Positions 5,726 to 39,284 of a stretch of 60,403 nucleotides of DNA are shown here, piece after piece. The DNA is from Candidatus Adlerbacteria bacterium. Its GTDB lineage: Bacteria; Patescibacteriota; Minisyncoccia; Phycocordibacterales; SBAW01. The stretch is from assembly GCA_037135035.1 (NCBI GenBank), contig JBAXLB010000004.1, positions 1-60,403 of the forward strand, written 5' to 3'. Below the pieces are notes generated by a model. The model searched no databases, had not been told where the DNA came from, and worked only from the letters and a program-made list of their open reading frames with translations. The stretch's first letter is position 1; each line of letters starts with the position of its first letter. The translations under genes and the position numbers were made by a program.

Positions 5726-6130
5726 ATGACCGATTGTGATCAAGGAAAAAGTTTTGCTCAATGGAAAGAAGCAGCATGGCCAACTTTTCGTTCGGGAATT
5801 ACACTTCAGGAAGTCAAAGAGGTAGGTGCAAGATTTGCTGGTGTGGGAGTTGCGCAACTTGAAGGTCTGCGTCGTACTATGCCTCTCGTACGATTGAGGC
5901 AGGCTTTGATGTACTTCAGCAGAGTGTGTTTGGAGAGGAACGATATGAAGCTCTATTCACTCGAGCAAGTTGGCCTTGCGTACAATCGTCACAATGCAAC
6001 TGCACTCTGTGCAGTTAGAAAAATTAAGAAACTGCGAAAGAATGGTCCGCGTCGCGATGGCGACAAAGAGGCTCTTGCGTTGCTCGAGCAACTCTGTCAT
6101 CACTTTAAGATTTTGCTACCAACAATATAA
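5726..6130 (+). CDS. stand-alone DnaA domain IV-like helix-turn-helix protein
   Basis: RBS GGGAGGGG lies upstream. LRQALMYFSRVCLE..YSLEQVGLAYNRHNATALCAVRKIKKL resembles the DnaA C-terminal DNA-binding domain (R..AMYL...SL..IG..F.RDHTTV.HA..KI). Confidence 0.55.
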   Translation: MTDCDQGKSFAQWKEAAWPTFRSGITLQEVKEVGARFAGVGVAQLEGLRRTMPLVRLRQALMYFSRVCLERNDMKLYSLEQVGLAYNRHNATALCAVRKIKKLRKNGPRRDGDKEALALLEQLCHHFKILLPTI

Positions 6131-9231: not shown

Positions 9232-9528
9232 GCAGCGCGTTGGAAAGTAGCCTTTGTTTCTTTATTGAAACAGGGGAGGAAAGTCCGAACACTCACTAAC
9301 CGCAAGGTTAGTAGCAAGGTAGCAGGTAACCCCTGTCATTCGCTTTTTGCGGGCGAAAGAGGTGCGAACAGTGACGAACCGATTTAGTTCGGGTGAAACG
9401 GCAAAATCCTTACCTGGGTGCAAGGTCGTGCTTCGTGCAAACGAAGAGTGCCGCTCGATCTCTGCGGCGACGCAGGGACCAGATAAATTACTTTTCACGA
9501 CAGAATTCGGCTTACAGACGCGCGCGCA
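9232..9528 (+). ncRNA. rnpB: RNase P RNA (bacterial type, compact)
   Basis: The universally conserved P4 strands are present: GAGGAAAGTCCG (9276-) and ACAGAATTCGGCTTA (9500-). GGGTGAAACGGC is also present. P1 pairing is GCGCGT (about 9234) with ACGCGC (about 9518). The ends are approximate. Confidence 0.85.
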
Positions 9529-9633
9529 AAAATGTGAACGCCCCCATACTCTGGGGGCGTTTGCGCGTCTGGCAATACACAATGCACATGTTGTTGCACC
9601 AGTGCGGGCTGACTCTCGGGTATACTGGTGTGT

Positions 9634-37198: not shown

Positions 37199-37576
37199 AT
37201 GGCACTTTTAAGAACTCCTGAGGGTCAGAAAAAATACAAAGACCTCATTGATCAAGGAATCTTAGAGAAAGGCTGCGCTCTATGTCTTAGTGAATCTATA
37301 AAGACTTTTACACATTGGAAAATCATGCCTAATGCATTTCCATACGATCGTATAGCTAAGGTGCATGACATGATCGTTCCTCTTAGGCATTCGATAGAAG
37401 ACGATCTTACGGTTGAAGAATTAAAAGAGCTACATGAAATAAAAAATTCTTATATCCAAAAAGAATACGAGTTTATTATAGAAGCTACATATAAGGTAAA
37501 ATCTATTCCTGCACACTTCCATTTGCATCTACTCATCATTAAAGATTTTGAAGATGAAAAAAGTAATTTTGTTTGA
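37199..37576 (+). CDS. HIT-family (histidine triad) protein
   Basis: C-terminal HFHLHLL matches H-phi-H-phi-H-phi-phi. The gene is AT-rich. Confidence 0.6.
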   Translation: MALLRTPEGQKKYKDLIDQGILEKGCALCLSESIKTFTHWKIMPNAFPYDRIAKVHDMIVPLRHSIEDDLTVEELKELHEIKNSYIQKEYEFIIEATYKVKSIPAHFHLHLLIIKDFEDEKSNFV

Positions 37577-38141
37577 TGCAGATGGGGTGGTCATAAAGAA
37601 ACGGAAAGAATTTTTTAGTGATACGTTTGTGCGCGAACAGGGTGTCTCGTCTGAAGGGATAAATTCATTTTTCAAAAACCGTTTTCATGCCTGTCAAATT
37701 GGGAAAGCTGATATAAAAGAAGAACTTGAGCCGCTTTTGCCTGCATGGGGCTGGGATAAGTCGGTCGAGGAGTATTTGGACTATTGGTTTACGACTGATG
37801 TTATTTTGGATGATGAGGTTTTAGGGTTTGTAGAAGAATGTCGCGGTAAAGGGATTAAATGTTATTTAGCGACCGACCAGGAAAAATATCGCGCCATATA
37901 CTTCCGCGAACAAATTGGGCTCGACAAATACTTTGACGGTTGCTTTTTCTCCTATGAGTTAGGCGCAACCAAGTCACAGTCGGAATTTTTTAAGAAAGTG
38001 TTAGAAAAACTGAATGTATCGGCATCAGATGTTGCCTATACAGACGACGACCAGAAGAATGTCGACGTTGCTCAATCTCTTGGAATCGCGAGTCACTTTT
38101 TTACTGACATCGAAAACCTTCGTAAATTTCTACAACTTTGA
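37548..38141 (+). CDS. HAD-superfamily hydrolase
   Basis: Motif I VILFDADGVV and motif IV YTDDD. The start may be 37548 or 37554. Confidence 0.75.
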   Translation: MKMKKVILFDADGVVIKKRKEFFSDTFVREQGVSSEGINSFFKNRFHACQIGKADIKEELEPLLPAWGWDKSVEEYLDYWFTTDVILDDEVLGFVEECRGKGIKCYLATDQEKYRAIYFREQIGLDKYFDGCFFSYELGATKSQSEFFKKVLEKLNVSASDVAYTDDDQKNVDVAQSLGIASHFFTDIENLRKFLQL

Positions 38142-38165
38142 CTAAAAGTTAAGGCGTGGTATTAT
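38138..38165 (+). promoter_or_regulatory. sigma70 promoter of the T-box leader
   Basis: TTGACT-16 nt-(TGg)TATTAT with an extended -10. The -35 element overlaps the HAD gene stop codon. Confidence 0.65.
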
Positions 38166-38171
38166 TTATAT

Positions 38172-38400
38172 ATAAAGCGATGAAGGGGAATAGTAAGCGC
38201 AAGCTGAACCTACCCCAGAGCTGCACCCGAAAGGAGTGACGGAAGCCTAACCGTAAAACAGGGACACTAGTGTCGGTATACCGGAGCTAGTTACCAAGGT
38301 TCAGACAGCAATGTCTGGGCAAACAGTAAAGTGGTACCACGAGAAATCTCGTCTTTACACGGAACAATAGTTCTTTGTAGTGACGAGGTTTTTGTTTTTC
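38172..38400 (+). promoter_or_regulatory. T-box riboswitch leader, specifier CCU (Pro), ultrashort Stem I
   Basis: The elements found are listed below.
- K-turn AGCGATGA / AGAGCT.
- Specifier loop: 5' side AATAGTA, 3' side GAA-CCT-A, with CCT at 38209-38211.
- Apical 3-bp helix capped by GCAA.
- Stem III CAGACA-GCAA-TGTCTG.
- T-box sequence AAAGTGGTACCACGAG at 38328-38343.
- Terminator CTCGTCTTTACA/TGTAGTGACGAG followed by GTTTTTGTTTTT. Confidence 0.8.
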
Positions 38401-38414
38401 AACAGGAGCGAACG

Positions 38415-38630
38415 ATGGATGCAGTGGCAAAGTCTATCAAGCGTCATGAAGAAAAACTGCGGAGGAAAAAGCCGCCGCAAGAAGTTTCCAAAGTGCCGTG
38501 GGGGTGCGGTATGGGTTGGCCCGAGCTCAAGGACTATGAAAGCCTTGATGCGTATGTGGCAGCGCGGCGAGCAGCCGATCCCAGTTACACCTTTAGCCAC
38601 GATGGCAGGTTTTGGCTACTGCCCGGCTAA
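38415..38630 (+). CDS. 71-aa hypothetical protein directly downstream of the T-box terminator
   Basis: RBS CAGGAG lies 6 nt before ATG 38415, within track ORF 38331..38630. Sequence is MDAVAKSIKRHEEKLRRKKPPQEVSKVPWGCGMGWPELKDYESLDAYVAARRAADPSYTFSHDGRFWLLPG. Confidence 0.5.
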   Translation: MDAVAKSIKRHEEKLRRKKPPQEVSKVPWGCGMGWPELKDYESLDAYVAARRAADPSYTFSHDGRFWLLPG

Positions 38631-38638
38631 AAGCCGTT

Positions 38639-38670
38639 AAGGTCCGCGGTTACTCGTGGGCCTTTTTCTT
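38639..38670 (+). terminator. hairpin plus T-tract between the 71-aa ORF and the csaA-like gene
   Basis: AAGGTCCGC-(8 nt)-GTGGGCCTT (includes G-U pairs) followed by TTTCTTT. It may be a partial terminator. Confidence 0.4.
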
Positions 38671-38685
38671 TGTTAGAGTAGAGCT

Positions 38686-39024
38686 ATGATTACGTGGGAA
38701 GATTTTGAAAAGGTAGATATTCGGGCGGGGAGAATTGTTGATATTCAAGATTTTCCTGAAGCACGGAAACCCGCGTATAAATTTAAAATAGATTTTGGTT
38801 CAGACATTGGAGTTAAAAATTCTAGCGCCCAAGCAGTGGGTGCGCATACTAAAGAAGAGCTGCTAGGGAAGTTGGTGTGCTGTGTTGTAAATTTTCCTCC
38901 AAAACAAGTTGGACCGTTTATTTCAGAAGTGTTAACGCTTGGGTTTAAACATAACGCAGGGGACGGGTGGGTACTTATCCAGCCAAAGAAAGACTCAGTA
39001 GATATTGGCAGCAAGTTGCAGTAA
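38686..39024 (+). CDS. csaA: tRNA-binding domain protein (CsaA/Trbp111/YgjH family)
   Basis: ITWEDFEKVDIRAGRIV....FPEARKPAYK..IDFG........SSAQ.......E.L.GK.V..VVNF.PK.. is the EMAP/Trbp111 OB-fold signature. Confidence 0.8.
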   Translation: MITWEDFEKVDIRAGRIVDIQDFPEARKPAYKFKIDFGSDIGVKNSSAQAVGAHTKEELLGKLVCCVVNFPPKQVGPFISEVLTLGFKHNAGDGWVLIQPKKDSVDIGSKLQ

Positions 39025-39054
39025 AGAAAAAAGCTCCCGCAGATGCAGGAGCTT
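39025..39054. terminator. hairpin between convergent genes
   Basis: AAAAAA-AGCTCC..GGAGCT. The T-run is on the minus strand, so it serves 39081..39284. Confidence 0.5.
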
Positions 39055-39080: not shown

Positions 39081-39284
39081 TCACCAGCCGACGCTTATTG
39101 CACCAGCCCCGAGCGCCCGAGCTGCGAGGAAATATAGGTTGTTCGGACTTCTGTAGATGAGGACTTTCGGGTCTTCGGGGGTTTTGCCATCTTTGGTGGC
39201 AGACGGAGGTTTGCCAGCGATCAAGTCCAATATTTCAGAGACTTCTCCGACCTTATTCCAAGCGACCGTTACGTGTACTTCCAC
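39081..39284 (-). CDS. hypothetical 67-aa protein
   Basis: Intact ORF with a downstream hairpin. No family recognised. Confidence 0.4.
   Translation of the reverse strand: MEVHVTVAWNKVGEVSEILDLIAGKPPSATKDGKTPEDPKVLIYRSPNNLYFLAARALGAGAISVGW

Follow-up and report, generated by a model that had tools for sequence, protein, structure and literature searches.

In a 60,403-nucleotide (nt) stretch of DNA from a Candidatus Adlerbacteria bacterium (contig JBAXLB010000004.1, hereafter the window), we analysed an RNA leader on the plus strand, at 38171–38359, which an initial annotation of the sequence had described as a T-box with a proline specifier. We consider it highly probable that this leader functions as a transcription attenuator of the proline T-box type and belongs to a subfamily with truncated Stem I found in Patescibacteria, with the reservation that the lineages of three members (L034, L064 and L123) are uncertain. 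The leader controls the gene of a conserved protein of 71 amino acids (aa) and probably also that of a CsaA-type protein of the tRNA_bind family. What is new is a transcriptional T-box variant that has no platform for the elbow of the transfer RNA (tRNA), usually has no S-turn in Stem II, and serves an unusual regulon.

Architecture of the leader

The leader is preceded by a sigma-70-type promoter at 38138–38165 (+), composed of TTGACT, a 16-nt spacer, TG and TATTAT, with 10 of 12 matches; the initial annotation had proposed a near-consensus promoter at this place. The kink-turn (K-turn), basal helix, specifier loop, Stem III and T-box sequence were also all found in the sequence where that annotation had placed them. 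The truncated Stem I occupies 38176–38221 and begins with the K-turn, which is formed by AGCGATGA (38176–38183) together with AGAGC (38217–38221). When the leader was aligned to the Rfam T-box model RF00230, the K-turn AGCGAUGA/AGAGC fell on the corresponding model positions; the G-C and C-G pairs that flank it hardly vary across the set of related leaders described below. Above it lie the basal helix, GGGG (38185–38188) paired with CCCC (38213–38216), and the specifier loop, whose two sides, AATAGTA (38189–38195) and GAA (38206–38208), have the AAUAGUA...GAA layout of an S-turn. The loop presents the proline codon CCU followed by the conserved purine A (38209–38212), and the Rfam alignment places the specifier at the same CCU. 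Stem I is closed by a helix of only 3 bp with a GCAA cap (38196–38205). The pairs of both the basal and the distal helix covary across the leader set. The AG bulge and the distal-loop platform are absent, as previously described, and in the alignment 4 nt take the place of 55 positions of RF00230.

Downstream of Stem I, a 15-nt mini Stem II (38224–38238, CACCC-GAAA-GGAGUG) contains neither an AGUA/GAA internal loop nor an S-turn. It is followed by Stem IIA (ACGG/CCGT) and the IIB pseudoknot, together at 38239–38263, in which CCU of the loop (38246–38248) pairs with GGG (38261–38263). Between Stem IIA/B and Stem III there is an extra hairpin, ACUAG...CUAGU (38266–38291), which falls within an insertion when the leader is aligned to the Rfam model and is specific to this family. 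Stem III spans 38299–38320 and consists of the core CAGACA-GCAA-UGUCUG (38302–38317) with purine-rich flanks. The T-box core, AAAGTGGTACCACGAG, is located at 38328–38343, and its UGGU (38332–38335) could pair with a 3'-terminal ACCA.

The antiterminator (38326–38358) is built from helix A1, a UGGUACC bulge and helix A2 (ACGAG/CUCGU), with a folding energy of -9.0 kcal/mol. The terminator hairpin at 38343–38399 is much more stable (-23.8 kcal/mol, z-score -5.8) and ends in a T-tract at 38389–38399. The two structures use the common strand CUCGUCUUUAC and are mutually exclusive, so that the competition between them suggested in the initial annotation was borne out by folding. The minimum free energy of the whole leader corresponded to a z-score of -4.8 against shuffled sequences. 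The Shine-Dalgarno sequence AGGAG (38404–38408), which lies 6 nt upstream of the ATG of the 71-aa gene, begins 5 nt after the end of the T-tract; the leader ends in an intrinsic terminator, and its expression platform is not one that sequesters the Shine-Dalgarno sequence.

The RF00230 match extended over 38171–38359 and the full model, with a score of 70.8 bits and E-values of 2.8e-15 for the local region and 2.4e-13 when the search space was the entire window. The match is thus significant, although it does not reach the curated Rfam gathering cut-off of 93 bits; the leader was found only at permissive thresholds, and a default Rfam scan of the window reported no T-box. The low score results from the deletion of the distal part of Stem I, for which 55 model positions are represented by 4 nt. 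In the permissive Rfam scan this leader was the single T-box within the window.

Within Stem I the family keeps the K-turn and the S-turn-containing specifier loop; farther downstream it keeps the Stem IIA/B pseudoknot, Stem III, both antiterminator helices and the bulge with UGGU, which is present in all leaders of the set. The distal Stem I platform, i.e. the double T-loop onto which the tRNA elbow docks, is missing, and instead the members carry a covarying hairpin of 3–7 bp over the specifier loop. In most members Stem II is a hairpin of 17–21 nt that is closed by a loop of the sequence GAAA, GAUGA or GAAGA and has no internal S-turn; this folding comparison covered the window, L034, L075, L093, L122, L124, L131, L134 and L142. 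The Stem II of L123 looks conventional on inspection by eye, and the helix sequences of Stem II vary between members, an impression by eye for which pairs were not formally counted.

Stem I had been called 'ultrashort'. It is indeed truncated, but the specifier of the window leader sits in an internal loop with an S-turn, below the 3-bp hairpin and not in an apical loop, and by the description in PMC7583486 this arrangement is closer to the 'intermediate' class. A different Stem I was seen in L064 (4603–4803, plus strand), where a GGGG-UUUCCCA-CCCC hairpin would present CCC-A in its apical loop, like a true 'ultrashort' leader. This locus has a second hairpin before the 3' strand of the K-turn, is homologous to the others from Stem II onward (110 bits with the covariance model R1 introduced below) and precedes a gene for prolyl-tRNA synthetase (ProRS).

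Related leaders, covariation and proline specificity

The leader set was assembled from two structural pattern scans, one of public genomes and one of metagenomes, together with context look-ups and the covariance model R1, which was constructed in this work. It comprises 12 related leaders (L034, L064, L075, L093, L122, L123, L124, L131, L134, L142, L143 and L144). The first scan, of genomes, returned mostly ordinary T-boxes of Bacillota because the RGAGC element of the pattern matched the AG-bulge region, and only L034, L075 and L093 were relevant, with L064 added through the model. L093 comes from a metagenome-assembled genome of Candidatus Saccharibacteria. Eleven of the 12 related leaders scored below the Rfam cut-off (29–79 bits), L123 being the exception; the leader of L144, whose 5' part is cut off, had no match to Rfam at all.

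The pattern used for the metagenome scan put no constraint on the specifier codon. A CCN specifier was found in all 12 leaders with a window-type Stem I, the window included and L064 counted apart: CCU in 3, CCG in 3 and CCC in 6. In addition, seven of the 12 related leaders precede proline genes, either proB or proBAC-proS (L034, L093, L124 and L131) or proS (L123, L134 and L064). The proline specificity read from the CCU of the window is thus independently backed by the downstream genes.

Covariation was examined in two alignments. In a MAFFT alignment of nine leaders made without structural information, 89% of the pair cells held standard pairs, compared with 31–55% when the 3' partners were slid by 1–3 columns; there were 17 compensatory pairs, and none of 500 shuffles reached the observed covariation. 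An alignment of all 13 leaders gave 92% paired and 20 compensatory pairs, figures that are biased towards the structure because this alignment was fitted to the model. Both results agree with the fold proposed in the initial annotation. The extra hairpin (helix 6) showed compensatory changes in four of its five pairs. Stem IIA occurs in the compensatory variants ACGC/GCGT (L142) and ACAG/CTGT (L144), the third IIB pair was seen as C-G, U-A, U-G and G-C, and the antiterminator helices A1 and A2 covary as well. With R1, which was built from a set of sequences that included the window leader, this leader scored 177 bits; L142, L143 and L144, which were outside the building set, scored 100–120 bits.

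A promoter of the form TTGAC(N)-16/17-TAnnnT was located upstream of the K-turn in nine of 12 leaders, at a distance of 9–12 nt in eight of them and of 24 nt in L124. Intrinsic terminators, with a hairpin of -17 to -39 kcal/mol and a T-tract, reuse the 3' strand of the antiterminator in 12 of the 13 leaders, and the family therefore acts on transcription. The sole member in which no terminator hairpin with T-tract follows the antiterminator is L034; its sequence at 970–1030 is AT-rich and precedes proBAC, and this leader may use a different expression platform.

The 71-aa gene

The first gene behind the leader (38415–38630, plus strand; ATG at 38415) encodes the 71-aa protein. It had been described as an orphan reading frame, which proved incorrect: a word-indexed protein search recovered four homologues of 70–72 aa with 62–73% identity and the invariant motifs VPWGCG.GWPE, AAR and HDGR. 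At the four loci with DNA (the window, L142, L143 and L144), a GGAG Shine-Dalgarno sequence stands 6–8 nt upstream of the ATG. Differences between the genes fall mostly at the third codon position (e.g. 18/16/41 for the three positions), with a proportion of nonsynonymous differences (pN) of about 0.2 and of synonymous differences (pS) of about 0.9. The ratio of nonsynonymous to synonymous substitution rates (dN/dS) was 0.066 for L142 and L143, the sole unsaturated pair. These comparisons indicate that the 71-aa frame is a real coding gene and that it represents a small conserved family under purifying selection. The difference in base composition noted initially is also real: the GC content is about 0.30–0.43 upstream and 0.55 in the 71-aa frame.

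We weighed this against the view that 38400–38680 is a non-coding RNA or a spacer and that the 71-aa frame is open by chance in GC-rich DNA. The protein had no match in Pfam, NCBIfam, PADLOC, PHROG or a PDB profile search, its AlphaFold2 model was poor (predicted local distance difference test score, pLDDT, 67.5) and found no match in the PDB with Foldseek, and a second, overlapping frame of 86 aa is likewise open in the window. A chance frame is, however, scarcely credible in view of the homologues with their invariant motifs, the excess of third-position differences, the low dN/dS and the conserved Shine-Dalgarno sequence, and the 86-aa frame is interrupted in all homologues.

The 86-aa frame itself (38380–38640, plus strand) was rejected as a chance reading frame, being open in the window alone with stops in all three homologous loci; a tandem-repeat match of this frame to P0121 was spurious.

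The CsaA-type protein

The second gene (38686–39024, plus strand) encodes a tRNA_bind protein of 112 aa with an OB-fold (PF01588, 43.6 bits; cut-off 27). It had been described as CsaA/Trbp111-like, and the assignment to the tRNA_bind OB-fold family stands; the protein is, however, closest to CsaA and not to Trbp111. It passed the NCBIfam cut-offs of both NF007495, 'tRNA-binding protein' (138.3; cut-off 117), and TIGR02222, chap_CsaA (137.4; cut-off 119.65). The nearest solved structure was CsaA 2q2i (E 3.7e-32), with CsaA structures in general matching at E-values of 1e-32 to 1e-20, and the identity to Trbp111 was 28%.

Trbp111 recognises tRNAs through the 3'-terminal CA alone, and it has been suggested that it shields tRNA tails from UGGN (PMC11286949). 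Among the positions forming the A76 pocket of Trbp111, S82 and P74 are invariant in the window protein, and R75, I77 and M85 are replaced by K, V and L, respectively. F78 corresponds to G, with an F two residues on, and K33 to P, so that these two residues are not conserved in place. It is plausible from this comparison that the window protein binds the 3' end of tRNA, and it may also have a chaperone role for secreted proteins.

Homologues that share 77–82% identity with it carry the labels Candidatus Paceibacterota, Wildermuthbacteria or Patescibacteria, in agreement with the unusual lineage pointed out in the initial annotation. Regarding strain variants for an analysis of selection, the sole other contig carrying the window OB-fold protein was identical.

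Gene order

The order of leader, small gene and tRNA_bind gene, first seen in the window, recurs in three other loci, one of which is not syntenic with the window. All three loci with a homologue of the small gene and available DNA have the leader upstream and the tRNA_bind gene or its start downstream. In L142 the leader (CCG) is followed by the small gene, a GC hairpin without a T-tract and the tRNA_bind gene; the flanking genes, glutamate dehydrogenase and a Na/Ca exchanger, are unlike those of the window. L144 contains the 5'-cut leader (CCC), the small gene, a hairpin with a T-tract and the start of tRNA_bind. Similarly, L143 contains the leader (CCU), the small gene, a terminator and a tRNA_bind start of ten codons in an error-prone assembly. 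The tRNA_bind frame of L143 (4268–4300) stops after these 10 codons (MITYEDFEEI*), and since gyrA is also called in fragments on this contig, the stop may be an assembly error and not the mark of a pseudogene. In L075 the leader stands directly before the tRNA_bind gene, with no small gene between. A tRNA-Thr(UGU) gene was observed in L075 at 5838–5918 (minus strand), 16 nt downstream of the leader-controlled tRNA_bind gene and on the same strand; the two could be co-transcribed.

We also noticed genes of the YbaK/ProX-type tRNA_edit family near tRNA_bind genes. In L003 (657–1546) and L004 (675–1564) the tRNA_edit gene overlaps the start of tRNA_bind, and this points, independently of the leader, to a link with tRNA-Pro. 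On the contig of one homologue of the 71-aa protein, P0123, tRNA_edit comes three genes after the small gene. Genes like tRNA_edit, the OB-fold gene and the proline leader recur close together in a variable region between gyrA and a methyltransferase-SBP-pilin block. In another lineage (L155–L161, the P0079 context), the end of a HIT-family gene lies 12 nt upstream of tRNA_bind.

Alternative explanations

Several observations weigh against the conclusions drawn so far, the first group concerning the leader and the second its reach. A search of the window and of all other available loci for tRNA genes recovered none for tRNA-Pro. The score of 70.8 bits is below the Rfam threshold. Transcriptional T-boxes generally require a long Stem I with an elbow-binding motif, and truncated Stem I is known mostly from translational actinobacterial leaders that rely on the S-turn of Stem II (PMC7583486); the present leaders, with their truncated Stem I and in most members no Stem II S-turn, go against this rule. 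The basal pair of A2, the steric sensor, is canonically a G-U wobble, which is found in only one of the 13 leaders; it is A-U in eight, including the window, and G-C in four. The low score, the loss of elements held essential for transcriptional T-boxes and the non-canonical A2 pair might together be taken as signs of decay, the leader being a remnant of a former proBA or proS T-box. This is very unlikely, as 13 loci share the same reduced architecture, every helix shows compensatory changes, and the specifier, K-turn, pseudoknot and UGGU bulge are all intact. Moreover, such leaders precede intact proB and proS genes, which must be expressed, and a constitutive terminator of -24 kcal/mol in front of essential genes would not persist.

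The second group concerns the CsaA-type gene. Although the 71-aa gene does come first behind the leader, as the initial annotation had it, the CsaA-type gene is separated from it by a second strong terminator that the annotation lacked. This 11-bp hairpin with a T-tract (38639–38675, plus strand; -16.5 kcal/mol) is presumably a partial terminator. In each of the four loci (the window, L142, L143 and L144), a stable hairpin comes after the small gene; the sequences of these hairpins are unrelated, and three of them have a T-tract. On the contig with P0123, which by its gene calls is syntenic with the window, a gap of 460 nt precedes the small gene, and the genes that follow are 2-Hacid_dh, CutA1 and tRNA_edit, not tRNA_bind. 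The closest homologues of the window OB-fold protein (80–85% identity) have no leader, whereas the leader-linked copies of L075 and L142 are only 61–62% identical to the window copy; the linkage is therefore patchy across the tRNA_bind protein tree. From these facts it could be argued that the T-box controls the 71-aa gene alone, that 38639–38675 ends the transcript and that the CsaA-type gene is expressed independently, e.g. from a weak promoter that overlaps the hairpin and perhaps yields a nearly leaderless mRNA, its adjacency reflecting shared descent or a shared insertion site. We regard this as possible but somewhat doubtful. The same type of leader stands immediately upstream of tRNA_bind in L075, the order of small gene and tRNA_bind is found again in L142 among different flanking genes, and there the hairpin lacks a T-tract. 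In the window, the interval between the T-tract and the ATG of the CsaA-type gene is only about 20 nt, and a scan of 38165–38686 found no consensus promoter between the leader promoter and this gene; transcripts of the CsaA-type gene must therefore cross the second terminator, unless a non-consensus promoter overlaps it. Given the short gap, the promoter scan and L075, we lean towards co-regulation of the CsaA-type gene by the leader, at a reduced level, as the likelier reading.

Other features of the window

The transcription unit is followed by a hairpin at 39031–39054 whose T-tract serves the minus strand only. A convergent reading frame of 67 aa (39081–39284, minus strand) ends at this hairpin; it has no Pfam match, and the identical contig L141 has a gene call for it. 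The gene at 37199–37576, two genes upstream of the leader, had earlier been labelled HIT, and Pfam gave only a weak match to DUF2851. The 60 kb of the window contain 11 tRNA genes, for Gly, Arg, Phe, Val, Ser, Glu, Leu (two), Lys, Cys and Tyr; proS, proBAC and tRNA_edit genes were not found within it. At 9232–9529 (plus strand) we found a class A bacterial RNase P RNA with 97.6 bits against an Rfam cut-off of 100. As its 298 nt match a model of 367 positions, it is a reduced RNA that default annotation would miss.

Discussion

The structure of the locus suggests the following mechanism. Transcription would start just downstream of the promoter at 38138–38165, and by default the terminator at 38343–38399 would form and stop it. 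When tRNA-Pro is poorly charged, its anticodon would pair with the CCU at 38209–38211 in the specifier loop and its free 3'-ACCA end with the UGGU at 38332–38335; these contacts would stabilise the weak antiterminator, and RNA polymerase would read on. The first product would be the 71-aa protein, and those polymerases that pass 38639–38675 would also express the CsaA-type OB-fold protein. As there is no platform onto which the elbow could dock, capture of the tRNA must use the specifier loop, the K-turn, the mini Stem II, the IIA/B pseudoknot and perhaps the extra hairpin.

A more far-reaching proposal joins two ideas, namely that these leaders capture tRNA-Pro in a distinct way, without elbow or S-turn contacts, and that the 71-aa and CsaA-type proteins form a starvation module acting on tRNA. 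In the first part, the GNRA-like mini Stem II and the family-specific hairpin might serve as replacement contacts. The second was suggested by the fact that Trbp111 grips the same 3'-terminal CA that pairs with the UGGN bulge of a T-box. Taken together the proposal is speculative and we think it unlikely to hold as a whole. If it did, the induced CsaA-type protein could protect uncharged tRNA or pass it to ProRS; alternatively, it could occupy the 3' end of the tRNA in competition with the T-box, which would give a negative feedback loop.

Reviews tie truncated Stem I to slow, reversible translational control and consider the elbow platform necessary for fast co-transcriptional capture. Thirteen covarying leaders without the platform, mostly without the S-turn and with strong terminators, provide a direct test of this rule, and at about 190 nt they offer a compact natural T-box scaffold. 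The regulation of genes in Patescibacteria is almost unknown, and the leaders represent a native, ligand-specific regulatory element in these reduced genomes. As all but one of the leaders score below the Rfam cut-off, standard annotation would miss them. For the family of 70–72-aa proteins, a proline T-box upstream is the first functional handle. It also links the widespread CsaA-type protein, whose role as a secretion chaperone or a tRNA binder is debated, to the charging of tRNA-Pro.

Comparison with known systems

The literature searched contained no description of a T-box that precedes a CsaA/Trbp111-type gene and no publication on T-boxes in the candidate phyla radiation (CPR), Patescibacteria or Saccharibacteria, which does not prove their absence. 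Neither Patescibacteria nor CsaA-type targets were among the entries of the 2008 survey of T-box regulons, and both are likewise absent from the TBDB paper. Within the CsaA/Trbp111 family (PF01588; structures 2q2i, 2nzh, 1gd7 and 1pyb), the window protein passes the family cut-offs and keeps part of the A76 pocket.

The proBA and proI T-boxes of Bacillus are transcription attenuators that sense tRNA-Pro through a CCU specifier (Brill et al., 2011, cited in PMC3858371), and this confirms the use of CCU to which the initial annotation had referred. The window leader resembles them as a tRNA-Pro attenuator with a CCU specifier, and its seven sister leaders likewise stand before proB or proS. The Bacillus leaders are described as conventional, whereas the present family has no distal Stem I platform, mostly a mini Stem II, and an extra hairpin. 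Moreover, the target in the window is neither a biosynthesis gene nor an aminoacyl-tRNA synthetase gene, and the host belongs to the Patescibacteria.

A reduced Stem I, intermediate or ultrashort, is known from the actinobacterial ileS T-boxes (Sherwood et al., 2015, reviewed together with the structures 6UFM and 6UFG in PMC7583486). Both groups lack the elbow-binding double T-loop and keep the K-turn, the specifier loop and the IIA/B pseudoknot. The ileS leaders are translational, acting by sequestration of the Shine-Dalgarno sequence, respond to isoleucine and use a purine string in the S-turn of Stem II (PMC7583486). In contrast, the leaders described here have terminators in 12 of 13 cases, are specific for proline and mostly have a Stem II of 17–21 nt without an S-turn.

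As regards the small gene, the protein anti-TRAP of B. subtilis offers a precedent for a T-box placed over a small regulator instead of an enzyme and producing it when a specific tRNA is uncharged. Anti-TRAP is the 53-aa product of rtpA. It is a non-enzymatic protein under the control of a tRNA-Trp T-box (PMC7430163). It has no sequence similarity to the 71-aa protein and differs from it in having a known target, TRAP.

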